Shown here: positions 1 through 22,969 of the stretch, piece by piece
How positions within the stretch are numbered: the stretch's first letter is position 1
How the letters are laid out: each line of letters opens with the position of its first letter
From: a virus
Taxonomy: Duplodnaviria; Heunggongvirae; Uroviricota; Caudoviricetes
IMG/VR virus record: IMGVR_UViG_2548876695_000005
Coordinates: 1 to 22,969 of that record
Strand: one strand, 5' to 3'
DNA length: 22,969 nucleotides
Program-made: the position numbers and the translations under genes
Notes under the pieces: model-generated
The model's database searches: none
What the model saw: the letters and a program-made list of their open reading frames with translations, nothing else
Told to the model about the DNA's origin: nothing

Positions 1-114
1 CCATCAGAAACGATGATCTGGCAGCCTGAGTTCACAGATAAAACACTCTCCAGGAAAACCGGGGCGGTTCAGTTCCACCTCGCACAAGAAAAACGATAAC
101 GCCGCAGTGATGGA

Positions 115-594
115 TTATTTGAACCATTTACTGGATGGGTGAATGTCACCAATGTGGTGCGTTTCCTCGAAAGATTTTGAGAAGTGCATACCGGGGATAG
201 CGACATCGGCTTGATCCAGAATAGGAGCGTCGATAATGGCATTAATAAAAAACTGGGCACTTTGCTTTGCTAATTCTAATGAGTCAAAGCCATTACCTGA
301 ACTTTCGGTAACTTTAGACAGTTGTCCATTTTTTGAGATAAATAACTCCCAGCCCCATAGCGATTCATGCTGTTTTAAAGAAATAACTACAGATGGACAG
401 TTTTCTGTATCGCCAGAATTAATATCGTCACCAGCCTTAATAAAAATTGGCGATTCCATAAGGCCTACAAAGTTCTCAAGGTCATCAATGGCTTTAGGTC
501 TTGTTTCAAATAGTGGACTTTCAAAGAGGGGGGAACCATCGGAAAGTACCCAGTGTGATCCGTGGTCTTTTTTAAAAAACACATTGAATTTCAT
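115..594 (-). CDS. hypothetical protein, AT-rich accessory gene (about 160 aa)
   Basis: Minus-strand ORF; preferred start is the ATG at 594 (MKFNVFFKK...), preceded by AAGGAG with 5-nt spacing. The track start at 642 is a longer alternative. Lower GC than flanking phage genes and opposite in orientation to the early operon. No motif recognised; no HTH seen. Confidence 0.5.
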   Translation of the reverse strand: MKFNVFFKKDHGSHWVLSDGSPLFESPLFETRPKAIDDLENFVGLMESPIFIKAGDDINSGDTENCPSVVISLKQHESLWGWELFISKNGQLSKVTESSGNGFDSLELAKQSAQFFINAIIDAPILDQADVAIPGMHFSKSFEETHHIGDIHPSSKWFK

Positions 595-732
595 TACAAC
601 TCCTTCTGTGTTGGTGATTGTTATGCCTGATTCACTGCTCAAAGTTACACAGGCATAGCGATGTTATCACAGGAAACACGTGCCGGGCGTGGGGTTATAT
701 CCCGGCATCTTTTCAATATGACGGAGATCAAC

Positions 733-954
733 ATGGACTTAACACAGTGCCCTTCACTCGCCAGCCTGCTCACCCACGGCCAGCAGATCACCCACCGTCA
801 GCATCAACGCGGCTGGATTGAAACCCCGGACGGGCGGTTCTTCCAGCCTAAAGCGGCAGATGTTCAATTTGTTAAAAACTGCCGTGTACCGTTTATGTCG
901 CGCCCGCGTAATAAGCGCCGCTGGTTTTCCCGCTTAATGGGCATCTTTGCGTAG
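733..954 (+). CDS. hypothetical early-operon protein (about 73 aa)
   Basis: ORF track 661..954; preferred start is the ATG at 733 with GGAG 6 nt upstream. First gene of the rightward operon leading to dam and gpA. Function not recognised. Confidence 0.4.
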   Translation: MDLTQCPSLASLLTHGQQITHRQHQRGWIETPDGRFFQPKAADVQFVKNCRVPFMSRPRNKRRWFSRLMGIFA

Positions 955-969
955 TTCGGGGAGGTGGTT

Positions 970-1359
970 ATGTTGATGGATAAGACAGGACAACAGCCAG
1001 GCCGTCGCCAGTTCTTAGAGCAACGGGCTCGACTGCAAGCAAGTTTGAACGTCTCACGCGTGAACGACACTGCAACCCGTTTTAACCGCCTGGATGATGC
1101 CTGTAAAAAGGTGATTTTCATCCTGGCAAACGATGCGTCCAGATACATAGCCGGAATGCCGAAGCTGACCGCCAAACAGCTGGGTTGTACTTACGAAAAT
1201 CTAACCGAAAAGGAGCAAACGTGCCTTTTGATGGGCATTAAGCGCCTTTCCGAATTTGCAGCATCAATGCCGTGGGAATTTGAGGACTACGCCGCACCAC
1301 GCGCCGAAATTCAGGCGATACGCGACAAACCACCCGCGCCAGATAACGCAGTAAATTAA
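970..1359 (+). CDS. hypothetical early-operon protein (about 129 aa)
   Basis: ORF track 964..1359 (GTG); ATG at 970 is preceded by GAGG with 5-nt spacing. Lies between the small early gene and dam. Function not recognised. Confidence 0.5.
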   Translation: MLMDKTGQQPGRRQFLEQRARLQASLNVSRVNDTATRFNRLDDACKKVIFILANDASRYIAGMPKLTAKQLGCTYENLTEKEQTCLLMGIKRLSEFAASMPWEFEDYAAPRAEIQAIRDKPPAPDNAVN

Positions 1360-1429
1360 CAACTAACTACCCACAAAAAAGAAACAGGCGCTAACGCGTC
1401 GGGCTTCTTGCACCCTGGAGAAAGTAAAA

Positions 1430-2320
1430 ATGATTCGATCTCTCGTTAAATGGCCCGGTGGTAAAGGCCGCGTTATGCCTGATTTGCTGCCGATTCTGCC
1501 GAAAGCCGATTGCCTGGTGGAACCGTTTGTCGGCGGTGCTTCTGTTTTCCTCAATACTGAATATCGCCGTTATATCCTGGGTGATATCAACCCAGATTTA
1601 ATTAACCTGTATCGCCAGATAACCCGCTGGCCTGATGCGGTGATCGACGCTGCTCGCCCACTGTTTAAAGTGTACGGCGATAAAGACGGCTATAAGTGGA
1701 TCCGCGATGATTTCAACGCCCGCGCCCGTGACCTACTGTCATTGCGCAGTGTGTTTGAAGATGGGCCGGACGCGGGCAAGATTCTTCGTGCAGCACAATT
1801 TCTTTACCTGAACCGTCACGGATATAACGGCGTAGTACGCTACAACCAACAGGGTGGATATAACGTTCCCTTTGGGCGTCACAAAACCCCGCCTTACTTC
1901 CCGGAAGAACAAATCCGTTTATTCTCTGAAAAAGCTAACGACACGAAAGCTATTTTCGTGTGCTGCGATTTCCAGAGCACGTTAAAAATCATGATTGGTA
2001 GTGACGCGGTTATCTATTGCGATCCGCCATACCTGCCAACAAGCGAAACCGCTAATTTCACCCAATACCACACCGCCCCGTTTGGGATTAAAGAGCATCG
2101 CCAGTTAGCTGCCGCTCTGCTGGATATTAACCGCCTTACTGGTTCGCCGGTGATCCTGTCCAATAGCGACACCCCAGCCACCTGCGAGATTTATCGCTCT
2201 TTCAACTTCCAGGAAATTAGCGTTAACCGTTCTGTCAGCGCGAACGCCATTACCCGAGGGGCCGCCAGTGAGGTGATCGGTATTCTCAAGGTTGCGACTT
2301 CTACGGGCATATGTGAATGA
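1430..2320 (+). CDS. dam: DNA N6-adenine methyltransferase (Dam family)
   Basis: 296 aa. SAM-binding motif EPFVGGASVF near the N-terminus and catalytic DPPY motif (CDPPYLPT). GGAG upstream of the ATG. Stop overlaps the gpA start (ATGA), suggesting translational coupling. Confidence 0.85.
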   Translation: MIRSLVKWPGGKGRVMPDLLPILPKADCLVEPFVGGASVFLNTEYRRYILGDINPDLINLYRQITRWPDAVIDAARPLFKVYGDKDGYKWIRDDFNARARDLLSLRSVFEDGPDAGKILRAAQFLYLNRHGYNGVVRYNQQGGYNVPFGRHKTPPYFPEEQIRLFSEKANDTKAIFVCCDFQSTLKIMIGSDAVIYCDPPYLPTSETANFTQYHTAPFGIKEHRQLAAALLDINRLTGSPVILSNSDTPATCEIYRSFNFQEISVNRSVSANAITRGAASEVIGILKVATSTGICE

Positions 2321-4929
2321 CTAACGCTTTCGCATGGCCTTGGAACGCACCGCGTCCAGCTGTTGGCCCGTACATCTATGAACCGAAAAAAATCGCCCCG
2401 CTTGCTGGGGCGGTGGCGCATCATCCTGCCGTAAAAAAACATATCGATCACATCTTCAAACGTGCCGGTTACAATCCCGCCGAAGTTCGTGACCGTGATG
2501 CGCTCATCCAGGCGCTGGACAGGTACGAACCATGCGGCCTGCCACTGGCCGCCCATCAAAATATAATCCGGCAAGAAATGGAAGCCGCTAAAGCCACGGC
2601 GGCAGCCTGGGCCAATACGCCAGAAGGTGTCGAAGCACGTTTATTATCAGAGCCGTTCTTCATTCGTGAAGTCTGGCGTAAAAAAATTGAGTGGTTACGG
2701 GTCAACCGTGAAACCAGACACACCAATGATTTTCTTATGGGGACAGTGAAAAAATCATTGCTGCGTCTTGATGTTGTGCGCACAAGGCAAGGTGTTTCGC
2801 CTGATATCACCGGCGAACTGGCCGCGTACTGGTTCGGGCGCTGGCAACGGCTGGCTGATTTCACAAAGCGGGAAGCACTAAGCGCCGCTAATGAGATCGC
2901 CAGCCGCATGGCTGAAATGCTGGGGACGGAATGCGAAGCCCTGGGACAGAATGTTTCCGACATGAACGTCGAAGAACTGGACTGGCTTTATTGTCATCTG
3001 GGCCGCGAAATGCTGGCGCTTCGCATTGTGCCGCCTGCATGGTATGCGCCGTGGGAACGTGATCGGATATGTACGGCCATTTTGCGTATGGCTTCGCCTG
3101 ACTGGTGGGGGCGCAAAATCTGGCGCCTGCGTTGTGACTGGCGCGAAAACCAGCTGCGAGCCGTTGGCGCGGTAAATAAAAAAGCGCACGCATACGTTAG
3201 CGCTTCCAGCCTGATCGAGTGGCAGGAACAGCGCCGTAAAAACCGGGATTTTTTCAAAAGTCATGAACTGGTAGACGAAGACGGCAACGTTTCCTCACTT
3301 GAGGACATGATTAATAAATCCACGTCAAACCCGGCTATTCGTCGCCATGAGCTTATGGCCCGAATGGCTGGGGTTGAGCTTGTTGCCCAAAGTCGCGGCG
3401 ATGTTGGCATCTTCCTGACAATCACTTGCCCGTCGAAATATCACAGTAATATTGCATCCGGCCACCATAACGCCAAATGGAATCATTCCACCGTCGCCCA
3501 GGCGCAGTGCTATTTATGCCGTGTGTGGAACCGGGCAACCGCCAAACTGAAACGCGAAGATTTGCGCCCTTATGGCTTCCGTGTCGCCGAGCCGCATCAC
3601 GATGGGACACCACACTGGCACGCGTTGCTGTTTATGCCACAAGAGCAAGTCAAAGCCACGGTTGCGATCCTTCGCACCTACTTCATTGCGGAAGACCGCG
3701 ACGAGCTGGGCCGCAATACCGGCGCTCGTTTCAAGTCAAAAAAAATGGACCCACGGAAAGGGTCAGCAACGGCATACATCGCTAAATACATTTCGAAGAA
3801 TATCGACGGCCACGCGCTGGCCGGTGAACTGGACGACGAAAGCGGCAAGCCGCTGAATGAAAGCGCCAAATATGCAATGGCCTGGGCATCGCTTCACCGT
3901 ATCCGCCAGTTTCAGCCCATCGGACAGCCGCCCATATCGGTTTACCGCGAGCTGCGCAAACTTAGTAATCAGATCACGACCCGACAGAAAATTGACAGTA
4001 CCTTCAAACGTGGTGCGCCATTGCTTGTGGATCCTGCAATGGATGCGGTTTGCGCCGCTGCCGATGTCGGATGCTTTGCTACTTACATCATCCGCCAGGG
4101 TGGTGTTTTGATCCCGCGAGAAAACTATGTCGTCCGTCTGGCCTATCAGCCCGCTGATGAAATGAATGCTTATTGTGAGATCCCCGAAAAGGTTTTCGGG
4201 GTCTGGTCGCCGCGTCTGGGGGATGCCTCCCGTATTTGCACCCGTCTGGTTAAGTGGAAAATTCGAGCCAAATCCAAAACCGTCACTGGGGCCAAAAGCG
4301 GCCCCGGTTTGGGGGTTGACCTTTTGCCGTCGCCAACCGGCGACGCTTGGAGTTCTGTCAATAACTCTACGGAAGACGAAAAAATCACCGATTTTTCGCC
4401 TGGTGTGGAGGGTATTACAGAAGAATCAGAAGAGGAAATCGTCGATTTTGAAAATATGGACCAGCCAACGCGGCGCAAATTGATACGGCGACTACGTGAA
4501 GCACCATTCAAAAGGCGGCACAGCGGATCACCTTATGAACCAGGGAGCGAATTAGATGTTGCCTGGCGTTCTGCCGTGGAAAAAACCGAGGCCAGATCGG
4601 TGGCTGATAAAGCCAGGCGGGCAGCGCTTGCCCCTGCGGTTGCCAGTCTGCTGGCTGATGCGGCGTTGTGTTTGGTTGAGATTTCAGAGATTCAGGCCGT
4701 TTCGCTGTTAATGGGGAGCCGTCTGGAGATTGGCGGGAAATTTTATCAAGCCAGTGCTGGCGGCCAGTTGATAACGCGTCAATTACCTAATGAGTCACGG
4801 ACGGTGAATAAATTATGGGAACATTTACGGGATAACCACGGCATTGATGCCACGCACCTGCGGTTTGATCCGGTCGGGGAATATCAAAAAATGCTGGCGG
4901 GTGCGGAAGGTCGCTACCCTAAAGAATGA
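2317..4929 (+). CDS. A: P2 gpA-type replication initiation endonuclease (rolling-circle initiator)
   Basis: 870 aa. HUH motif (PHWHALLF) and paired active-site tyrosines Y-x3-Y (TAYIAKYISKN), as in P2 gpA-family initiators. Position after dam and before the accessory island fits P2 synteny. Confidence 0.85.
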   Translation: MTNAFAWPWNAPRPAVGPYIYEPKKIAPLAGAVAHHPAVKKHIDHIFKRAGYNPAEVRDRDALIQALDRYEPCGLPLAAHQNIIRQEMEAAKATAAAWANTPEGVEARLLSEPFFIREVWRKKIEWLRVNRETRHTNDFLMGTVKKSLLRLDVVRTRQGVSPDITGELAAYWFGRWQRLADFTKREALSAANEIASRMAEMLGTECEALGQNVSDMNVEELDWLYCHLGREMLALRIVPPAWYAPWERDRICTAILRMASPDWWGRKIWRLRCDWRENQLRAVGAVNKKAHAYVSASSLIEWQEQRRKNRDFFKSHELVDEDGNVSSLEDMINKSTSNPAIRRHELMARMAGVELVAQSRGDVGIFLTITCPSKYHSNIASGHHNAKWNHSTVAQAQCYLCRVWNRATAKLKREDLRPYGFRVAEPHHDGTPHWHALLFMPQEQVKATVAILRTYFIAEDRDELGRNTGARFKSKKMDPRKGSATAYIAKYISKNIDGHALAGELDDESGKPLNESAKYAMAWASLHRIRQFQPIGQPPISVYRELRKLSNQITTRQKIDSTFKRGAPLLVDPAMDAVCAAADVGCFATYIIRQGGVLIPRENYVVRLAYQPADEMNAYCEIPEKVFGVWSPRLGDASRICTRLVKWKIRAKSKTVTGAKSGPGLGVDLLPSPTGDAWSSVNNSTEDEKITDFSPGVEGITEESEEEIVDFENMDQPTRRKLIRRLREAPFKRRHSGSPYEPGSELDVAWRSAVEKTEARSVADKARRAALAPAVASLLADAALCLVEISEIQAVSLLMGSRLEIGGKFYQASAGGQLITRQLPNESRTVNKLWEHLRDNHGIDATHLRFDPVGEYQKMLAGAEGRYPKE

Positions 4930-4933
4930 ATTA

Positions 4934-4977
4934 AATCACGCTATCCGTCGCAGCTGGTTGCGTCGGATAGCGTGATT
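4934..4977 (+). terminator. long hairpin immediately 3' of gpA (14-bp stem, no clean U-tract)
   Basis: AATCACGCTATCCG at 4934-4947 pairs perfectly with CGGATAGCGTGATT at 4964-4977, 5 nt after the gpA stop. No clear U-tract follows, so it may be a processing or regulatory hairpin rather than an intrinsic terminator. Confidence 0.4.
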
Positions 4978-4985
4978 CTGCGGGG

Positions 4986-5012
4986 GCGGGCGGCAAAGAG
5001 CCCGCATTTGAG
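4986..5012 (+). terminator. second GC-rich hairpin followed by ATTTGAGTT (putative intrinsic terminator)
   Basis: GCGGGC at 4986-4991 pairs with GCCCGC at 5000-5005 (8-nt loop), followed by a short T-rich run. Sits at the boundary between GC-rich phage DNA and the AT-rich island. Confidence 0.4.
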
Positions 5013-5293
5013 TTCTGTCAGCGCGATGCCCCTAATCCAATATCTAAATATGCAGTTACGGCATAATGTTAATAGCGGTCATATTCGGTATGCTCCAGTT
5101 AGAAACTACGCTGCGATGTTAAAGATGAGTGATACAAGTGAGTGGGCTAGGCTGTTTGACTCAGCAGAGTAAAGAGGTAATCTTGTTTAAGACAAGTTTC
5201 AAGATAGAATGATTAATGTTATTTGAAGATTTATGTAATACAATATCATTGCAGAGATTTTTAGATAATTGATAAATCATGTTGTCTTATTAA

Positions 5294-8086
5294 ATGTGGG
5301 GTCTGATTTTGGAAAGAAAAATTATTTTTAATAATGGTTTTTTAAGTATAAATAGGGAAGTTATAATTATCTTCTTGATCTACTTTATTCTGGTCGGGTT
5401 GGGTATTTCCGGTGTAATCTACTCTAGATATGTTGATGAAGGGGTAAAGTATTTACTTGTAACACCATCTTTTCTCAATAATTCCCCATTGAATTGGACT
5501 ACTAGTGTTTGGGCGGGAGTTTTAGGCATACATGGAACTATTGCTGCACTATCAATTACATTTATGGGAATGTTTGTTAGTCAGGTTTCTAATTATTCTG
5601 AACATGGCTTTGAAAATATTTGTAAGTCGATGTTGTTGCGGAAAACTAGTTTTTTAAAGTTTAGTTTAAATTCTATTTTTAGTCTTTTAAGTGGTATCGT
5701 ATTGCTTTCATGTGGTGGCGGCATGATTACTTATGCTATATCCATTTTTGTATCGTTATACTTTATTTTTAATTATGGTTCAATGTATCTGAAATTATAT
5801 AATGTTACTGAGAATCCAACTATAATAACTGATCGTTTATTTTTTGAGCTTGATAAGGCTAAAAATGATTATTTATTGATTGACGAACGTAGAAGAACTA
5901 TAGAAAATAAATTTTTAAACATGATTAATGATTTTGAATATATTCATTATGGGTGGGATTCCGATTTTATCAATAAAGGACAACGTAAGTTAAATATTTT
6001 CCAAAATAATCAAAATGTCATTATTAATGATTTTTGTCCAATTTGCTTTAAAGAAATTAACAATGAGCTAGAGCGTTTTTCGAAAGTGGTACGTACTGAT
6101 TTACGCGTGAATCTTAACTTTATATATCCACTATCAACCTCATCGGTTCATATTGAAGTGCAAGATGGAGCGTCGATCGATGAGCTATTAATTAGTAATG
6201 TTACAAAACTATTGAAAAAAGGATTGGTGTTCAGTTCAGCTCCTGAAAGCTTCTTGAATTACGGTAAGTATGAAGATGCAGTAGTTATTAGCTTAAGAAA
6301 TAGTCTTTTTAGTGGTAATGAGTTAGCGTTAGATTTTAGCATAAGAGCTATCTTCACATTAGTTAGTGAAACTGAATTAGTTAAAGTAATACATAACCTC
6401 AATCACTCTTTTGGTTATACTAACAAAAAAAATAATATAGAGTATTCAATTTTTGCTGCTTTTTATATGAAGGTTAGTTCTGAAGTGAGTGGGTATAAAA
6501 ACTATAATATAGTGTGTGATGCTCTTCGATCGATTATGGATTTGGGAAGGTATATTTATGATAATGAGCAATATGATGAATTTTATAAATTGATATCACC
6601 GTCATTGGAACATCGTGCTCAATATAGTTTAGGTGATCCAGAATATCGTTTTTTTGATTTATATATGTCAACGGTGAGAGACAACATCTTGTCAAAGAAT
6701 TATTTGGCATTTAGCCTGAATACTCGATTCTTGACTGAGAAATTTCGTTATCCAGAGTCATCTGATGATGGCGAAACCCTTAGTATCATTGAGAACAAGA
6801 TGGTATCGTGTGTAAGACAGGTTATAACTTTACTGATTATTAGGCTGTGCTATTTATCTGAAAAAAGTGATGGGCATCAGGAGGAATTGAGAATAATAAA
6901 ACAGAATTTAATGAAATGGTTAGCACCTTCATTCCTAGAAGATCTTTTTTATAAGAGTGGCGTGTATGATGTTATATTTACAGTCCCATCTGAACCTGAT
7001 TTTGATGCAAGTAGAACTTTAAGAGATATACCTGATTATGAGGTTGCAACCTTTTCAATAAATAACGATGCTTTCAAAGCAGTATCCCTTTTAATGACTC
7101 AAACATTATTTAATAAAAACAACTTCAATCCTATTTTTATACGTAATAAAAAAGAGTTTATTAAAAATACAAAAATAACAACTCATGAACTGCAATCACT
7201 TATATCATATTTGAAAGGTGATGAATTTTCAGCTTTATTAGAGTTGATTAATGAAGGATCTTCTCAAGAAACAAATCGGATGGAGGTTGCAGAGCATCTT
7301 GAAAGTATAATTTCTGTAAAAAATGAATTAATCGCAAATTCTATTGTTTCTTCTGACCTTGATAAGGTTCTGGTTAATAAATACATAGATAAAGTATCAA
7401 TATCATTAGGTGGGTATTTTAATAAATTCGTAGATATTGATTCTATTCCTGTGTCAAATTCAGTTGTCTGCAATCCATTCTATTCATTGATTAATAAGAG
7501 AGAAGTCTTGCAGTCAATTGATAAAGTGCATTATTCAATGAATAGTTCACATCATGCTGAAGTGTTTGTCTATGCTTGGCTTCATAAAATGCTTGATGGA
7601 ATTAAAGGCCAATATAAAGATGTAAATGAGATCGAAGATGTAAGTGAACTACCTTCCGATAAGCTTATAACAATTCATTACATGGTTAAAGGAGAGGCAA
7701 GTGTTTACCGTTACTCAAAAGGTATGAGAATAACAGATTCAAAAGGAGTTTTGGGTTTGGGGTCTCCTGGTCTTTACTACATGGATTTTTTGAGCGTATT
7801 TTCCTGTCTGCGGAATACTAATTTATTTGATTTGAAAATTGAAAGTATTTCTGATGAGAATATTTCCTTAGTTAAGGGGTTGTATAATTTCAAGGATGAA
7901 AATCCATTGATGTACGCGCTGATGTCTATTAGGATTAATTTGGAATTTATTAATAACGATGGCTTGTCGTTTTATTATATTTCTGTAGATAGTTGTAAAA
8001 AAATCACTGCATTACATGAACAAAAACTTCGTCTATCTTTTAATGATAAAAAACCAATGGATGATATTGGTGAACTTTCAGATTAA
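5294..8086 (+). CDS. large AT-rich hypothetical protein with N-terminal multi-pass membrane domain (candidate anti-phage/abortive-infection effector)
   Basis: 930-aa uninterrupted ORF in a region of very low GC. The ATG at 5294 is directly preceded by an in-frame TAA; no strong SD. Three to four hydrophobic segments within the first ~165 aa (VIIIFLIYFILVGLGISGVIY; VWAGVLGIHGTIAALSITFMGMFV; FSLNSIFSLLSGIVLLSCGGGMITYAISIFVSLYFIF), then a ~770-aa hydrophilic region. I saw no Walker A, HExxH, DPPY or other catalytic signature. Location between gpA and the portal matches the P2 accessory-cargo position. Confidence 0.7.
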   Translation: MWGLILERKIIFNNGFLSINREVIIIFLIYFILVGLGISGVIYSRYVDEGVKYLLVTPSFLNNSPLNWTTSVWAGVLGIHGTIAALSITFMGMFVSQVSNYSEHGFENICKSMLLRKTSFLKFSLNSIFSLLSGIVLLSCGGGMITYAISIFVSLYFIFNYGSMYLKLYNVTENPTIITDRLFFELDKAKNDYLLIDERRRTIENKFLNMINDFEYIHYGWDSDFINKGQRKLNIFQNNQNVIINDFCPICFKEINNELERFSKVVRTDLRVNLNFIYPLSTSSVHIEVQDGASIDELLISNVTKLLKKGLVFSSAPESFLNYGKYEDAVVISLRNSLFSGNELALDFSIRAIFTLVSETELVKVIHNLNHSFGYTNKKNNIEYSIFAAFYMKVSSEVSGYKNYNIVCDALRSIMDLGRYIYDNEQYDEFYKLISPSLEHRAQYSLGDPEYRFFDLYMSTVRDNILSKNYLAFSLNTRFLTEKFRYPESSDDGETLSIIENKMVSCVRQVITLLIIRLCYLSEKSDGHQEELRIIKQNLMKWLAPSFLEDLFYKSGVYDVIFTVPSEPDFDASRTLRDIPDYEVATFSINNDAFKAVSLLMTQTLFNKNNFNPIFIRNKKEFIKNTKITTHELQSLISYLKGDEFSALLELINEGSSQETNRMEVAEHLESIISVKNELIANSIVSSDLDKVLVNKYIDKVSISLGGYFNKFVDIDSIPVSNSVVCNPFYSLINKREVLQSIDKVHYSMNSSHHAEVFVYAWLHKMLDGIKGQYKDVNEIEDVSELPSDKLITIHYMVKGEASVYRYSKGMRITDSKGVLGLGSPGLYYMDFLSVFSCLRNTNLFDLKIESISDENISLVKGLYNFKDENPLMYALMSIRINLEFINNDGLSFYYISVDSCKKITALHEQKLRLSFNDKKPMDDIGELSD

Positions 8087-8240
8087 ATGTAATGTATCAT
8101 TGTAGAGATTTATTCTTACAGTGTTTGAACGCGTTTATTCACTAAGGATTGTTTCTATGTTGTTTATATAGGATATTGATAGTGCGTAAAAGTATGATTT
8201 TATAATGTGTAGGCAATGGGCTGGATAGGGCAATCCTTTA

Positions 8241-8277
8241 CTTATTTGAAAACCGCCGCAATTTGAATGTGCGGCGG
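8241..8277 (-). terminator. intrinsic terminator for the leftward P-Q-zinc finger operon
   Basis: Perfect 8-bp inverted repeat CCGCCGCA (8253-8260) and TGCGGCGG (8270-8277) with a 9-nt loop. On the minus strand the stem is followed by TTTTCAAATAAG. Lies ~70 nt downstream of the minus-strand ORF ending at 8349. Confidence 0.5.
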
Positions 8278-8348
8278 AGGGATGTAATGTACATTAGGTG
8301 TTCAAAGGATTGATGCTTGCGCCGTACATCTATGTGTAGCAGTGGGAT

Positions 8349-8675
8349 TTATGTAGTTTGCCCACTGAGCAGGTCCAGCGCGAATTGACGTTCTTCCGGC
8401 TTGAGCCGGTCAATCAGGAATTTAACCAGCTTGTTGCCGGTCAGCCCGCTGGGGCTGAGGGTATGTGAAAACTCAACGCTATAAACAAATGTATGACCAC
8501 ATTCCACTTCTGTGCAGCCACAGTATAAAGACGCCAGTTTTTTATCTTTCCAGTCAGATTTGCGAATGATGGCCGGTGAGCCGCATTCAGGACATTTAAT
8601 TTTAAAAACTCGCATGTTCACCATCCCGCACGCCATTGCTAATAATGGGGGGGATTTTAACTTAACTGCGCTCAT
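8349..8675 (-). CDS. Ogr/Delta-family zinc-finger protein (putative late-gene transcriptional activator)
   Basis: Contains C-x2-C-x22-C-x4-C (CPEC...22 aa...CTEVEC), the spacing of the P2 Ogr / P4 Delta zinc finger, followed by HTFVYSVEF resembling the Ogr region after the fourth Cys. The ATG at 8675 overlaps the portal stop; an internal ATG at 8615 (MRVFKIKCPEC) is an alternative start giving ~88 aa. Confidence 0.55.
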   Translation of the reverse strand: MSAVKLKSPPLLAMACGMVNMRVFKIKCPECGSPAIIRKSDWKDKKLASLYCGCTEVECGHTFVYSVEFSHTLSPSGLTGNKLVKFLIDRLKPEERQFALDLLSGQTT

Positions 8676-17034: not shown

Positions 17035-19125
17035 ATGTGGGTAACAGCAAAAGAATGTGTTGGTCTTCCTGATTTACCAATGATGGAACATAACATTCGC
17101 CATCGACTCACAAAAGCAGCTGCGGGAAATGCAGCCATGTTACGCAAACGTAAGGGGACAAAAGCAATCGAATTTAATATCGATTGTTTGCCTTCTGGCG
17201 CGCAACAAGTATTGCGTGAACGTTATGCCCTTCAACTGATGACGCAAAAAGCTGATGAATCACCGGCTCCGGTGGTGACAAAGGCCAGACGCTCGCCTGC
17301 CGTGGTTGATGCGGTGGAGGCATATCGCGGATCACCACAACTGATGGTCGAACGCCTTAATGCCCTGACTGAAAACCAGCGCCAGGTGGCTGATGCACGA
17401 ATCGCGATCGTCAGCGAAGTTCTGAAAGTCGCGCAACAACCTGGTTTCAGCTGTGCGAAGGCTATCCGGTTTATCGTTGACAACCTGGCACGTTCGCAGC
17501 TGGACGAGCGCATTGTGGCAATGGTTGAGACGGCGAACGCCAAAAAGGGAAACAGCCGCGCGTTAAGTGAAATCACGCTGAAACGCTGGATTGCGGCCTT
17601 TAACAAGGCGCAGAACGCCGCTGAACGCCTGCTTTTACTGGCACCGGGTAAGCGCCAGGAAATAAAAGCCGAAGATATTAACTGGCTGCCCGAATTTCTG
17701 GCGCAGTATCGCCAGTCAAACGGCCGACCAATGACCGAGGCTTACGAGGATTTTGTCGCTGAATGGCAGCACCGGCACGCTGATGAGCCTTATATGCTCG
17801 ATATCATGCCGTCTTATGACACCATTCGCCGCGCAATGAAGAAACTGCCGGAAGTGGTGAAACAAAAAGGCCGGGTGACCGGCAGTGAATACCGCCAGCT
17901 TGAGGGATTCACGCGCCGCGACTGGTCCAGAATGCCGGTGAATTATGTCTGGATTGGTGACGGTCACGGCATGAAGCTGAAATGCGCACACCCGGTTCAC
18001 GGTCGGCCATTTGCACCGGAAGTGACCTTTGTTATCGACGGTGGCACGCGCTTTGTGGTGGGCTGGAGCCTTGACCTGGCTGAAAATGTTTTCGCCGTAG
18101 CCGGTGCCATACAGCACGGCATTCGCCATCACGGCAAACCGTTTCTGTATTACTCGGATAACGGCTCCGGGGAAACCGCCGACATCCTGGATAAGGAGGT
18201 TGTGGGGATACTGCCGCGACTGGGGATTAATCACCCGACCGGGATTGCCGGTAATCCGCAGGGACGAGGCATTATCGAACGGCTTAACCGCACATTACCG
18301 ATGCGCATAGCCCGTAAATACCGCACCTATTTCGGGAAAGGTGCAGATCGCGAGACGTTACGCAAAACCAACCGCGATTTACGCTCGGCATTTACTGCCC
18401 TGCAACAGGGCAAACGGCTGAACGCCCGGCAGCAGTCAGCGATGCGTGATTTACCGTCCTGGTCTGAACTGATTGATGCCATTCGTGACGGTGTTGAGTG
18501 GTACAACAACCGGCCGCACGATGAATTACCGATGAAGCCGAACGGTAAACATTACAGCCCGGCGGAGTTCAGAAAAAAACGCCTGGCGGAAGAGGACACG
18601 GAAATTGAATGGCTGTCCGATGTTGAGCTGCGGGATATGTTCCGGCCGATGGTGGAACGCCCTGTAAGACGCTGTGAAATACGCTGGCTGAATAATATTT
18701 ACTACGCGCCCGAGCTGCGTGACGAGCATGGTCGTAAGGTGCTTATCAGCTATGACATTCATGATGCCGAACGAATTACCGTGCGTCGCCTGGATGGCAG
18801 CGTGATTTGCGAGGCGGTATGGGACGGCAATAAACGCGAAGCCTTCCCGGTCAGCGCGGAATACTACAAACAGCAGCAGCGCCTTAAAGGTATGCGTAAA
18901 CGCGCAGAGGAAAAAATCCGTGATGCCGAGGATGAGGTTGTCAACGTGCTGGAGCACAAGCCGCAGGAGCCCTGGCTGGAAAACATCTACCGCCCGGTGG
19001 GTAATACGGTGGCCGTTCAGCAACCTGCCGTTGATGATGAACCTGATGAAGAATACGAGCGTAATTTCCAGCGGGGATTGCAGTTGCTGGAAGCGAAATT
19101 AAAAGAAAATGACCCGCTGGCCTGA
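17035..19125 (+). CDS. A: DDE transposase (MuA-like)
   Basis: 696 aa. N-terminus resembles MuA (MELWVSPKECANLPGLP). Candidate DDE residues in WIGDGHG, YYSDNGSGE and GRGIIERLN. Position after ner. Confidence 0.9.
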   Translation: MWVTAKECVGLPDLPMMEHNIRHRLTKAAAGNAAMLRKRKGTKAIEFNIDCLPSGAQQVLRERYALQLMTQKADESPAPVVTKARRSPAVVDAVEAYRGSPQLMVERLNALTENQRQVADARIAIVSEVLKVAQQPGFSCAKAIRFIVDNLARSQLDERIVAMVETANAKKGNSRALSEITLKRWIAAFNKAQNAAERLLLLAPGKRQEIKAEDINWLPEFLAQYRQSNGRPMTEAYEDFVAEWQHRHADEPYMLDIMPSYDTIRRAMKKLPEVVKQKGRVTGSEYRQLEGFTRRDWSRMPVNYVWIGDGHGMKLKCAHPVHGRPFAPEVTFVIDGGTRFVVGWSLDLAENVFAVAGAIQHGIRHHGKPFLYYSDNGSGETADILDKEVVGILPRLGINHPTGIAGNPQGRGIIERLNRTLPMRIARKYRTYFGKGADRETLRKTNRDLRSAFTALQQGKRLNARQQSAMRDLPSWSELIDAIRDGVEWYNNRPHDELPMKPNGKHYSPAEFRKKRLAEEDTEIEWLSDVELRDMFRPMVERPVRRCEIRWLNNIYYAPELRDEHGRKVLISYDIHDAERITVRRLDGSVICEAVWDGNKREAFPVSAEYYKQQQRLKGMRKRAEEKIRDAEDEVVNVLEHKPQEPWLENIYRPVGNTVAVQQPAVDDEPDEEYERNFQRGLQLLEAKLKENDPLA

Positions 19126-19134
19126 AATAAAAAA

Positions 19135-19166
19135 ATAACCCGAGCGGCGACTCAGGTTATTTGATT
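19135..19166 (+). terminator. hairpin plus T-rich tract between transposase A and B (possible attenuator)
   Basis: ATAACCCGAG (19135-19144) pairs with CTCAGGTTAT (19151-19160) with one mismatch and a 6-nt loop, followed by TTGATT. Lies 10 nt after the A stop and ~30 nt before the B start. Confidence 0.3.
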
Positions 19167-19196
19167 AAACAAGGTATCAAATGAGAGGTTAATAAT

Positions 19197-20129
19197 ATGA
19201 CTGATATTAACGATGTAATCAAGACCATTGATGAACTTATTGATGGCGGCGTACTGACGCAGTATGCCATCGCCAGAGAGGCGGGAATTTCCGACGGCAC
19301 ATTATCGGCTTTCCGTAAGGGAAAATATAAAGGCGATAACGCTGCTGTGGCTGCTTCCCTGCGTTCCTGGTATGAGAACTGGAATAAACAAAGCGCACTG
19401 CCGGAACCGCCGCAGTTTGTGGAAACGCAGACAGTCCAGGAGCTGCGCGCACTGTTTCAGGCGGTTCGTCTGATGGGCTGTATTAACGTTATTGTGGGCG
19501 TACCGGGTGTGGGTAAAACGGCCACTGCCCGTAATTACTGCCAGGAGCAACCAAACACCTGGATGATCACCCTGTCACCCGCGCACTCCAGCGTCACGGA
19601 GTGTCTGCTGGAGCTGGCCGATGCGCTGGGGATTGATTACACCCGCGCGAACAAAGGGGCATTATCCCGCGCCATCCGCCGTCGCCTGATGGGAACGCGT
19701 GGACTGGTGATTGTGGATGAGGCGGATCATCTTGGTATTGACGGTCTGGAGCAACTCCGGGCAATTCAGGACGCCACGGGGATCGGGATGGTGCTTATTG
19801 GTAACCCGCGCGGATTGTTTAAAGGTGGACGCCGCACCTTTGATGATTTATCGCGCCTGTTCAGCCGTCTTGCCCGTACAAAACAACTTCGCAAGGCCAA
19901 AAAGGCGGATGTGCTGGCCATTGCCAGGGCGTGGGGGATCAGTGGTGAGGCCGAGCTGGCCGTCATGCAGGCTATCGCTGAAAAGCCGGGAGCGTTACGC
20001 GTTCTGACACATACGCTTAACCAGGCGTGGCTCACCGCCAGCGGTGAAGGCGCGGCGCTGACAGAAAAACATATTAATGCGGCCTTTAAAGAGGTTTATA
20101 CCAACCCTGAATTACTCTCACAGGTGTGA
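19197..20129 (+). CDS. B: transposition ATPase / target-DNA activator (MuB-like)
   Basis: 310 aa. Strong resemblance to Mu B: LPEPPQFVETQTV, Walker A GVPGVGKT, Walker B-like LVIVDEADHLG, KPGALRVL. GAGG 8 nt upstream of the ATG. Confidence 0.9.
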   Translation: MTDINDVIKTIDELIDGGVLTQYAIAREAGISDGTLSAFRKGKYKGDNAAVAASLRSWYENWNKQSALPEPPQFVETQTVQELRALFQAVRLMGCINVIVGVPGVGKTATARNYCQEQPNTWMITLSPAHSSVTECLLELADALGIDYTRANKGALSRAIRRRLMGTRGLVIVDEADHLGIDGLEQLRAIQDATGIGMVLIGNPRGLFKGGRRTFDDLSRLFSRLARTKQLRKAKKADVLAIARAWGISGEAELAVMQAIAEKPGALRVLTHTLNQAWLTASGEGAALTEKHINAAFKEVYTNPELLSQV

Positions 20130-20131
20130 TT

Positions 20132-20353
20132 ATGGCGGTATTTAATATTCCTGATATTTACGGACGCTTTTACCTGGTTAATTTCGATAACGTGAAGGTG
20201 ATTTCACTGGCCGAAAATAAAGAATGTGGCGATTTACTTTTTGAATTTAATGACCGCACACGAATGGTGATATCTGCCGGACTTGATCGAGAAGGTGCGA
20301 CAGACGTTTACAGCGGAATATGCCGTTCTGTTGGTGCGAAACAAGTCAGCTAA
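20132..20353 (+). CDS. hypothetical small early protein (73 aa)
   Basis: ATG at 20132 with AGGTG 5 nt upstream, 2 nt after the B stop (track lists a GTG at 20126). Function unknown. Confidence 0.5.
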   Translation: MAVFNIPDIYGRFYLVNFDNVKVISLAENKECGDLLFEFNDRTRMVISAGLDREGATDVYSGICRSVGAKQVS

Positions 20354-20365
20354 ATGAGGTGTTAT

Positions 20366-20620
20366 ATGAATATGCAATCCTGCGGTAACAAAATGAATTT
20401 ATTCGACTCCCTGAACAGCGCGCGCCGTCTGACCGAACTTGCCGGTGCGGTACTGGAACGCAGTAAGCGCTATCCGCAACGTTTTGCACTGAAAACCACG
20501 CCGCCGGTAGGCAACGTGCAGGGAACCGGTGAAATTGAAATCACCATACAGACCAACGGCCTGCGCCGCCGTGTGAAGGCCACCCGCATCAGCGGCTGCA
20601 CGGTTTACTGGGAGGTGTGA
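20366..20620 (+). CDS. hypothetical small early protein (84 aa)
   Basis: Preferred ATG at 20366 (GAGGTG 4 nt upstream); the ATG at 20354 is an alternative. Tightly packed with neighbours. Confidence 0.5.
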   Translation: MNMQSCGNKMNLFDSLNSARRLTELAGAVLERSKRYPQRFALKTTPPVGNVQGTGEIEITIQTNGLRRRVKATRISGCTVYWEV

Positions 20621-20621
20621 G

Positions 20622-20903
20622 GTGAAAAAAAATCTCATTGCATGGGCGTGGTCGAGTGGTCTTATTGAGTTTGGTTACGTCCTGCCGGAAGGTGCATTGC
20701 CGATAGTTGCCGGAAAGCCTGCCACGGTACGGCATGTGATTGAGGTTATGGCGCGTCATGGACGTGATGAACAGGAGCAGTTGCTGGTTCCGGGGATACC
20801 GGAAGCGGTGACGGAGGAAGAAGCCTTTAATGCCATGATTCGGTTCTGCCGTGAGGTCAGACGCCGGGTCAGTTATCCAAACAGAACGAGGACCAGAGGA
20901 TGA
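20622..20903 (+). CDS. hypothetical small early protein (93 aa, GTG start)
   Basis: GTG at 20622 preceded by GGAGGTG; begins 1 nt after the previous stop and overlaps the next start (ATGA). Confidence 0.5.
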   Translation: MKKNLIAWAWSSGLIEFGYVLPEGALPIVAGKPATVRHVIEVMARHGRDEQEQLLVPGIPEAVTEEEAFNAMIRFCREVRRRVSYPNRTRTRG

Positions 20904-21172
20904 GTAAAGTCGTACGCATTATTTTCGAATACAAGGAGCACGTTATCCATAAAAACGCTGATGGAACAGTGCGCATGGGGGTAAGTCTGGACATACGTTC
21001 AACCGGGATAAAGCAGAAAGGTGATGGACCCGCCATGATTTTTGGGGTGGTTATGCTCGCGGAAAGCAGAGACTTTGCTGAACTTGTGGCAATGAAAGCC
21101 AGTGCGCTCATGAAAGATATGAGCATGCGTTCCGGGGTTATTAAAGGTAATGAATTTAATCAGCAGGGGTAA
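20900..21172 (+). CDS. hypothetical small early protein (90 aa), paralogue of the next gene
   Basis: ATG at 20900 preceded by AGAGGA. N-terminus MSKVVRIIFEYKEHV is similar to the N-terminus of the downstream ORF. Confidence 0.55.
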   Translation: MSKVVRIIFEYKEHVIHKNADGTVRMGVSLDIRSTGIKQKGDGPAMIFGVVMLAESRDFAELVAMKASALMKDMSMRSGVIKGNEFNQQG

Positions 21173-21176
21173 TTCC

Positions 21177-21470
21177 ATGAGCAAAGTACGCGTTATTTTT
21201 GAATTTAAGCATGTTTCGCATGACGAAAAACCGGCAGGCAATGACTGTGTTGAAGTGCATGAAAAGATTGGTGTGGATGTAAAAACAGAACGTGATACGA
21301 ATAACAGGCCGACGTCACTCTGTGACGTTTATGCAAGTATTCTCCAGTATCACAGTCCTGAAATTATTCAGTTTCTCTCAGCGGAATTTCAGGCATCTGT
21401 ACAGGCTTTTGGGGCGGATGCCATCATTAAACGCCACCGCGTGCATAAAGCATCAGGCACACTGCAATAA
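21177..21470 (+). CDS. hypothetical small early protein (97 aa), paralogue of the preceding gene
   Basis: ATG at 21177 with AGGGG 7 nt upstream (track start 21150 is upstream in frame). N-terminus MSKVRVIFEFKHV is similar to the preceding gene at protein and DNA level. Confidence 0.55.
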   Translation: MSKVRVIFEFKHVSHDEKPAGNDCVEVHEKIGVDVKTERDTNNRPTSLCDVYASILQYHSPEIIQFLSAEFQASVQAFGADAIIKRHRVHKASGTLQ

Positions 21471-21481
21471 GGAAAAACAAA

Positions 21482-22012
21482 ATGGCAAAACGCGTTACAA
21501 AATTAAAGGCCGCAGCAGAGGCGGCACCGCAGACCCGTGAAGAGGTCAGCCGCGATATCCGCACCCTGGGCGATATTCAGCGAGAGGCGCTGCGCCTGGA
21601 AACAGCGATGAATGATGAAGTGGCAGAAATCACCGCCCGTTATACGCCGCAGATTGAAAACCTTAAAAAAGAAATCAAAGTGCTTTTTAAGGGGATTCAG
21701 GACTGGTGCAAAACCAACCGTGATGAGCTGACGAACGGCGGCAAAACCAAAACTGCCAATCTGACCACCGGAACGGTGTCATGGCGACTGGGGAATCCAT
21801 CATGCAGCGTCAGTCGTGATGTGGAAGGTGTGATTGAAATGCTGCGCCGTATGGGGCTTGAGCGATTCATCCGCACGAAAGAGGAAGTGAACAAGGAAGC
21901 GGTCCTGGCGGAGCCGGATGCGGTGAAAGGGATTGCCGGTATTAAGGTGAATAAAGGCGCTGAAAGTTTTTATGTCGAGCCTTTTGAACAGGACGCCGGA
22001 CTGAATAAATAA
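21482..22012 (+). CDS. gam: host-nuclease inhibitor Gam (Mu Gam-like DNA end-binding protein)
   Basis: 176 aa. Strong resemblance to Mu Gam along its length (MAK...RLETEMNDAIAEIT; ANRDELTNGGK.KTANL; RFIRTK.EINKEA; PFEQEAG). AAGGA 8 nt upstream. Confidence 0.85.
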   Translation: MAKRVTKLKAAAEAAPQTREEVSRDIRTLGDIQREALRLETAMNDEVAEITARYTPQIENLKKEIKVLFKGIQDWCKTNRDELTNGGKTKTANLTTGTVSWRLGNPSCSVSRDVEGVIEMLRRMGLERFIRTKEEVNKEAVLAEPDAVKGIAGIKVNKGAESFYVEPFEQDAGLNK

Positions 22013-22109
22013 CACCGCATTAATCAATTAAATATCACTTCGTTTTAATTATGGCGCTCGCGTCAGGGGACTGCCTGCGCCTGTAAACTGAAAATAAGGA
22101 ACAGGATAT

Positions 22110-22652
22110 ATGGCATATTTTTATTTCAAATTAGACCGTGTGCAGACAAATAAATATTTCACCAAATATCAACAGACTGTTTTACCGCTACGCAACAGTA
22201 TTCTTCGGGCATTACTGAAAAATACAGGCGCTGCCGGATTGCGCTTAAAGCCGTTTGCCATGGACGTAATCAGTGAGTTTTATTTTTCTGGTGCTCTGCC
22301 TGCGGGCTGGCGTAAGCGCGATGATGTGGCTTTTATCGGGGACGGACCGTGCTTTATTGCCAGACCTGATGAGTCATGCCCTGAAGGACCGGCGATTGCC
22401 GCAATGATTGAAGCCGCTGAACGCGAGTTAAGAAAGCGTCCTGATTTCCTTGTCTGGCTCTGTGAAAAGCTGGGGGTAATGAGAATCCCCTCCATGTTTA
22501 ACATGGACTCCTGGTGGACCCCGTCGCTCTCCCGTGATGCCCTGTGCGTGGTGTTTAAAGTAGGCGCTTATGGCAGGGAAATAAAAGGGGGTATTCCTGA
22601 AGAATGCCAGGAGATTAAACATTCTGAATATGTGGCGCTGACGGAGGAATAA
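22110..22652 (+). CDS. hypothetical early protein (180 aa)
   Basis: ATG at 22110 with AGGA upstream. Function not recognised. Confidence 0.5.
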   Translation: MAYFYFKLDRVQTNKYFTKYQQTVLPLRNSILRALLKNTGAAGLRLKPFAMDVISEFYFSGALPAGWRKRDDVAFIGDGPCFIARPDESCPEGPAIAAMIEAAERELRKRPDFLVWLCEKLGVMRIPSMFNMDSWWTPSLSRDALCVVFKVGAYGREIKGGIPEECQEIKHSEYVALTEE

Positions 22653-22655
22653 TTC

Positions 22656-22901
22656 ATGATTGATGCAAAAGTGCTTGAAGGGGTTAAAAACTGGCTGAGT
22701 ATTTACGGGCGTCTGACCTGCGGCATTCTGGCTGAAAAAATGAATATGCCGCCATCCTCGATGGTTTATTTTCTGCGTGATGCGGTCGATGCCGGGGTGC
22801 TGACGGAATGTAACGGTTTTTATGATATTCCGCGTCCCCGCCCGGTGCAGCCGGTTCGTCGCAAATGCAGCCAGGAAGGTGCGGCTGATGATGTTCAGTG
22901 A
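22656..22901 (+). CDS. hypothetical early protein (81 aa)
   Basis: ATG at 22656 with GGAGG 8 nt upstream, 3 nt after the previous stop. Function not recognised. Confidence 0.5.
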   Translation: MIDAKVLEGVKNWLSIYGRLTCGILAEKMNMPPSSMVYFLRDAVDAGVLTECNGFYDIPRPRPVQPVRRKCSQEGAADDVQ

Positions 22902-22952
22902 ACCGCCCCGGGAATCCTGGAGACTAAACTCCCTGAGAAAGAGGTAAACAGG

Positions 22953-22969
22953 ATGACTAAAAATACACG
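22953..22969 (+). CDS. partial CDS (5' end only), hypothetical
   Basis: ATG at 22953 with GAGG 8 nt upstream; the ORF runs off the window end. Confidence 0.3.

Follow-up and report, generated by a model that had tools for sequence, protein, structure and literature searches.

The open reading frame at positions 8349 to 8675 (minus strand) of the DNA analysed here, a stretch of 22,969 nucleotides that we call the window, encodes a protein which, judged by its sequence, is a member of the Ogr/Delta family, although not an Ogr orthologue in the narrow sense. The element that carries it is a K139/HP1-type P2-like prophage of E. coli (Peduoviridae, Irrigatiovirus-like). We put at roughly 85% the probability that this gene is the single Ogr/Delta-family late-gene activator of the prophage, a role assigned from family-level homology and from synteny. 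The ogr-like gene is already known and annotated, and the finding is real but ordinary: RefSeq names its product 'ogr/Delta-like zinc finger family protein' (WP_000247826.1; present in 19 of 5426 complete E. coli genomes), and the same gene is annotated as 'transcriptional regulator' in the Salmonella phage SW3. The gene and its P2-like neighbours in the window are as follows.

8349-8675, minus strand: Ogr/Delta-like gene, long form, 108 aa (PF04606, phrog_603), with an overlapping start in most portal-linked relatives
8349-8615, minus strand: core ORF from M21 (MRVFKIKCPEC..., 88 aa), comprising the zinc ribbon and the C-terminal helical extension; delimited by M21/R22 conservation and pN/pS
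8499-8594, minus strand: stretch coding for the C-x2-C-x22-C-x4-C motif (C28, C31, C54, C59), from a motif scan
8672-9733, minus strand: portal gene, gpQ homologue, 353 aa (PF04860)
9730-11541, minus strand: large terminase gene, gpP homologue, first in the leftward late operon (Terminase_6N, Terminase_6C, Terminase_5)
2317-4929, plus strand: replication protein GPA gene, by domain match

Family membership and conservation of the protein

A preliminary description of this DNA, made from the sequence alone, had reported an exact C-x2-C-x22-C-x4-C spacing and assigned the protein to the Ogr/Delta family, and both observations held up. The 108-aa translation (MSAVKLKSPPLLAMACGMVNMRVFKIKCPECGSPAIIRKSDWKDKKLASLYCGCTEVECGHTFVYSVEFSHTLSPSGLTGNKLVKFLIDRLKPEERQFALDLLSGQTT) contains C28-P-E-C31, 22 residues, C54, four residues and C59. 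A relaxed six-frame regular-expression scan of the window gave two matches, only one of which, in the ORF considered here, has the x22/x4 spacing; the other, at 1662-1754, is spaced differently from an Ogr-type finger. The profile search matched Ogr_Delta (PF04606) along its entire length (positions 1-47 of 47; E 3.5e-16) with 59.3 bits against a gathering score of 26.3, and in PHROGs residues 1-107 matched phrog_603, 'transcriptional regulator' of the category transcription regulation (E 1.3e-41).

The conservation of the cysteines, whose absence the preliminary description would have taken as a refutation, proved complete: C28, C31, C54 and C59 are invariant in 31 of 31 aligned homologues, as they are in a smaller alignment of 27 sequences. 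Zinc binding through these four residues is predicted from that pattern. Homologues fall into 82 protein clusters at E < 1e-5, all but two of them with PF04606, and within the window's clade the pN/pS ratio is 0.16 for core codons 21-104, compared with 0.48 for codons 2-20. The notion that this is a chance zinc-ribbon-like frame and no real gene has the small size of the ORF on its side and nothing else; the 82 clusters, the strong purifying selection and an HMM score far above the cut-off refute it.

About 35 aa follow the finger as a conserved C-terminal extension (SHTLSPSGLTGNKLVKFLIDRLKPEERQFALDLL; pattern SHTLSPS...RQ..L..L). An AlphaFold2 model built from 31 sequences places helices at residues 80-89 and 93-103 with pLDDT of 75-82; these are its sole confident part, the model as a whole having a mean pLDDT of 57 and its remainder being unreliable. 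A sequence search of the PDB returned nothing but marginal zinc-ribbon matches (E > 0.05).

Position, copy number and the state of the prophage

Positions 72-15608 of the window are 96-97% identical to the Salmonella phages SW3, SW5 and SI7 (Peduoviridae, genus Irrigatiovirus) and 99.9-100% identical to an E. coli prophage sited between yegR and yegQ; at the DNA level the portal gene is 96% identical to that of SW3/SW5. Homologues of gpP, gpQ, gpO and gpA all flank the ogr-like gene, which places it in a P2-like phage context. The leftward P-Q operon recognized in the preliminary description is borne out by the portal (PF04860) and gpP-like terminase (Terminase_6N/6C) matches upstream of the gene, with a GPO scaffold gene, detected by Pfam, divergent from the portal/terminase pair.

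We searched 50,697 phage records by tblastn and found a relative in 155 of them. In all relatives inspected the gene stands just 3' of the portal gene, convergent with the end of the early/replication operon. This order, portal then Ogr homologue and convergent with the replication gene, occurs in SW3/SW5/SI7, ESSI-2, vB_YenM_324, ESSI2_ev015, phiO18P and K139 (where the gene is orf13), and the portal-linked position has been stated in print for K139 and Smhb1 (PMC8537503). Position also varies within the family: the Burkholderia phages KS5 and KL3 carry the gene amid small regulatory genes (PMC3091744). The location had been described as non-canonical. No D-type tail gene lies beside it, in contrast to P2, yet in the K139/HP1-type branch of Peduoviridae the post-portal position is the rule, so that we see here neither an unusual place nor an unusual relocation of the activator.

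The same description had raised the possibility of a second activator and advised looking for a canonical ogr at the other end of the element. In the intact prophage of E. coli GF31 (yegR..yegQ), which starts with the integrase, the last tail gene encodes 574 aa, and an AbiH gene separates it from yegQ. The right end of this prophage, with the 574-aa tail gene and the AbiH gene, is without ogr, and six-frame motif scans run on the GF31 prophage, on its right end and on the full genome of SW3 revealed no further Ogr-type finger. Because the intact prophage copy has just one such finger, the gene is the sole Ogr-type activator of the phage and not a second one.

Two arrangements in Serratia differ in what lies upstream. 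At loci L014/L015 a 979-aa tail-fibre-like gene and a 238-aa gene, in place of the portal, precede a close homologue, which converges on a methylase gene and GPA. At L016/L017 an intact homologue persists in a prophage remnant in which the last codons of the portal gene alone survive and the coupled ATG has become ATA.

The P2-like prophage of the window is interrupted. Directly after a tail gene ending at 15583 comes the left end of a Mu-like transposable prophage (window 15609-22898), and at the junction the P2-like sequence ...cagcaaca is followed by TGTAACCAGG. This splits the rightward late operon of the interrupted prophage. Domain matches identify the following Mu-like genes.

15965-16663, minus strand: HTH repressor-like gene
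16758-17024: Ner-like HTH_35 gene
17035-19125: MuA gene
19197-20129: MuB gene

The window starts with the right end (1-71) and finishes with the left end (22899-22969) of one IS3-family element, ends that lie 1.3 kb apart in Stx phage records. The P2-like prophage has one copy of the element in its early region and the Mu-like prophage has another, and the window resembles an assembly contig bounded by IS copies. The P2-like prophage copy in the window is probably defective though its activator gene is intact, and given the Mu-like insertion and the IS the gene may be idle in this copy. One could go further and regard it as the silent passenger of a defective prophage, with an intact sequence that is no longer used; the severed late operon, with MuA and MuB domains encoded beyond 15609, the IS3-family ends at both window ends and the IS in the early region would all fit. 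Against this, uninterrupted prophages such as that of GF31 show 100% identity in the gene region (query: window 7900-9000), and the Mu-like and IS insertions look recent, given the 99.9-100% identity elsewhere. We consider a silent passenger very improbable, and because of the identity to uninterrupted prophages such a reading bears on the present activity of this copy, not on the identity of the gene.

Between the replication gene and the ogr-like gene lies a 930-aa ORF (window 5294-8086, plus strand) with a GC content of 28-34%, compared with about 52% around it. The ORF had no significant Pfam match (ABC_C was found below threshold only, at E 0.004) and matched only phrog_10073 and phrog_18005, both of unknown function; PADLOC gave no match for it or for the ogr-like protein. 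It fills a variable cargo spot, occupied by tin/old in P2 and by a methylase in SW3, and is therefore a candidate lysogenic-conversion or defence gene of unspecified kind.

Comparison with P2 Ogr and a candidate operator

The genes of K139 (orf13), SW3/SW5/SI7, ESSI-2, vB_YenM_324 and phiO18P, all in phrog_603, share with the window gene the family, the C-terminal extension and the post-portal position. The window protein is 92% identical to that of SW3 and 43-55% identical to the homologues of K139, ESSI-2, YenM_324 and phiO18P. These phages differ at the junction with the portal gene: K139 has a small orf14 and an annotated promoter between the portal gene and orf13 (itself annotated 'zinc-finger protein'), phiO18P has a 65-nt gap, and the genes of the window, YenM_324 and ESSI-2 overlap the portal stop through an N-terminal extension of 17-20 codons.

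P2 Ogr, like 186 B and PSP3 Pag, has the C-x2-C-x22-C-x4-C finger and PF04606 in common with the window protein. The fingers of P2 Ogr and the window protein align without a gap; 12 of 39 positions (31%) are identical, and all four cysteines are matched. P2 Ogr, however, is a protein of 72 aa without the C-terminal extension, whereas the window protein, of 88 or 108 aa, has it, and ogr of P2 follows tail gene D next to attP, whereas the window gene follows portal gene Q. Against the NCBIfam equivalog for P2 Ogr (NF007241) the window protein scores 18.1 bits, the cut-off being 116. This score and the absence of the extension from P2 Ogr are the reasons for not calling the protein a narrow-sense Ogr orthologue; the score also implies that its DNA specificity probably differs from that of P2 Ogr and that its role rests on family-level homology. 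The layout of transcription signals is nonetheless similar. The P2 record gives ogr its own promoter and describes 'the rho-independent terminator for ogr transcript and F operon', so that ogr stands at the 3' end of the late F operon with a promoter of its own and a shared terminator, an arrangement mirrored in the window by a candidate promoter and a terminator-like hairpin.

Delta of the satellite P4 is in the same Pfam family as the window protein; it has the Ogr fold duplicated in tandem, and its gene belongs to the psu-delta-sid operon. Delta activates P2-type late promoters (PMC8628076). The preliminary description had mentioned satellite cross-talk as a possible purpose of the gene, and nothing found in our analysis points to such a role.

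A broader alternative is that the protein is a second or auxiliary Ogr-type regulator, serving P4-like satellite cross-talk or the control of cargo genes, with another factor activating the late genes. The conserved extension, the finger identity of just 31% to P2 Ogr and the lack of a P2-type operator (see below) can be read in this way, as can the proximity of the gene to the variable cargo spot with its 930-aa ORF and the survival of intact homologues in portal-less prophage remnants (L016/L017). Yet neither the complete prophage nor SW3 contains another Ogr-type finger, the gene keeps its synteny with P-Q in many genera whatever the adjacent cargo, and the window, unlike P4, is without satellite genes. 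We therefore judge an auxiliary regulator to be unlikely, if slightly less so than a silent passenger, and retain the reading of the gene as the single late-gene activator.

The operator of P2 is TGT-N12-ACA (PMC3931495), located near -55. Five occurrences were found in the window, against 4.7 expected by chance, and none of them lies in the P/O region (11542-11717), where a different dyad is conserved.

11597-11619, no strand assigned: partly degenerate dyad GTGGCTAT-GTATT-TATAACCGAA, a candidate activator site, conserved in the divergent P/O promoter region of relatives

In the relatives the dyad reads TTCGG-N13/14-CCGAA, with the extended consensus TTCGGTTAT-N5/6-ATAACCGAA, and it is carried by K139, YenM_324 and ev015. 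We retrieved 60 distinct P/O regions by means of the terminase N-terminus. The outer 5+5 bases are perfect in 20 of these and have one mismatch in 5 more, at 48-92 nt from the start of P; the estimated chance rate of a perfect outer match is below 0.001 per region. The dyad occurs a single time in the whole K139 genome. In the window's clade the right arm and the inner pairing GGCTAT-N6-ATAACC (11599-11616) have been kept and the outer left arm lost, and the inner pairing is unique within the window. On these comparisons the dyad at 11597-11619 is the best candidate operator. The rightward late region has no other promoter-bearing gaps, and one dyad may therefore serve both the P and the O promoters.

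A perfect 8-bp inverted repeat in the same region, TATGTATT-N8-AATACATA (11603-11626), was rejected as the operator because it is absent from SW3, 96% identical to the window, and the dyad conserved across lineages was preferred. The repeat overlaps the conserved ATAACCGAA arm and is probably fortuitous.

A CATAAT hexamer (TATGAT in K139) lies 6-7 nt 5' of the P start, with no Shine-Dalgarno sequence (window 11542-11556, minus strand). A hexamer of this type precedes P in the window, SW3, YenM_324, ev015 and K139, which suggests that the mRNA of terminase gene P is leaderless.

Start codons, expression signals and proposed mechanism

Public annotations of the start conflict, giving 108 aa (SW3 in GenBank), 91 aa (RefSeq, from M18 at 8624) or 88-89 aa (other relatives). 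We compared the start region at 80 loci from different Enterobacterales species and, in addition, in phage records. Two starts are credible, the coupled ATG of M1 and the conserved core start M21 (ATG at 8615). The long-form ATG (8675-8673) overlaps the portal TGA (8674-8672) as ATGA (8675-8672). Where a portal gene is upstream, the long frame is almost always open as far as a start overlapping the portal stop (ATGA, TGATG or TAATG), and the N-terminal extension varies in length by whole codons (17, 18 or 20) while its amino acids are poorly conserved. M21 and R22, by comparison, are invariant or nearly so in the homologues, most of which have V at the position of M18. Three elements flank the core frame.

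8624-8627, minus strand: GGGA, Shine-Dalgarno-like, 8 nt 5' of the M21 ATG (GGAG in most relatives)
8654-8659, minus strand: TAAAAT hexamer, candidate -10 element 44 nt 5' of the M21 ATG, from its conservation at a fixed position
8249-8277, minus strand: terminator-like hairpin with an 8-bp GC-rich stem (CCGCCGCA/UGCGGCGG) and a 9-nt loop, followed by UUUUC; from folding compared with shuffles

Of 68 distinct upstream sequences, 53 have TAAAAT at -38 (or at -44 in the window's clade) from the M21 ATG; taken alone, the hexamer is frequent in the window. It persists at L034/L036 and L055, loci whose long frame is closed or no longer has its start, and it is also present at L014, where the upstream gene is not a portal, about 30 nt upstream. 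The codon preceding it is always xTA and never the common CTG. When 7900-12000 was scanned with the sigma-70 consensus, P, Q and the ogr-like gene were all without a minus-strand promoter, and TAAAAT was missed because the -35 region is poor; our statements on the promoter are based on comparative conservation. This conservation suggests that the gene has a weak promoter of its own with TAAAAT as the -10 element, and in K139 the authors annotated a promoter at the equivalent place. In that case translational coupling on the late P-Q transcript could add a further product, the long form of 108 aa.

At Ogr-type genes without portal linkage (L072, L077, L080-L083, L086, L087, L089, L090 and L092) TAAAAT is absent. 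These loci have another element 25-30 nt before the start, a short hairpin (CCTGTCAG...CTGACAGG / TTCTGGCAGGC).

The hairpin lies 72 nt past the stop codon and folds with -15.8 kcal/mol (z = -3.07; 1 of 200 shuffles as good). There is no T-run after it on the plus strand. It would end the P-Q-ogr transcript.

We infer late-promoter activation by the window protein from its relatives. By homology to P2 Ogr, 186 B and P4 Delta, the activator would bind the DNA upstream of the late promoters of P and O, which diverge, and bring in RNA polymerase of the host, thereby switching on the genes for packaging, head, tail and lysis. Its first expression, from the weak promoter at 8654-8659, would yield the 88-aa form that starts at M21. 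Late transcripts begun at the P promoter would subsequently run on into the activator gene, creating a positive feedback, and stop at the hairpin, while ribosomes ending the portal gene could restart at the overlapping ATG to produce the 108-aa form.

As a tentative extension, which we think more doubtful than probable, the portal-linked subgroup may depart from P2 in two respects: a different operator, the TTCGGTTAT-N5/6-ATAACCGAA dyad between P and O that would serve both, and an early 88-aa product joined by a late, coupled product of 105-110 aa. If this is true, the basic N-terminal extension could alter the activity of the protein once late transcription runs.

For annotation, the P2 consensus TGT-N12-ACA is unsuitable for finding late promoters of the portal-linked lineage, and of the three starts in use for the gene (108, 91 and 88 aa) the RefSeq choice of M18 is the least conserved. 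Beyond correct annotation the importance of the gene is small: it is the late-gene switch to be expected in a well-populated group of P2-like prophages.
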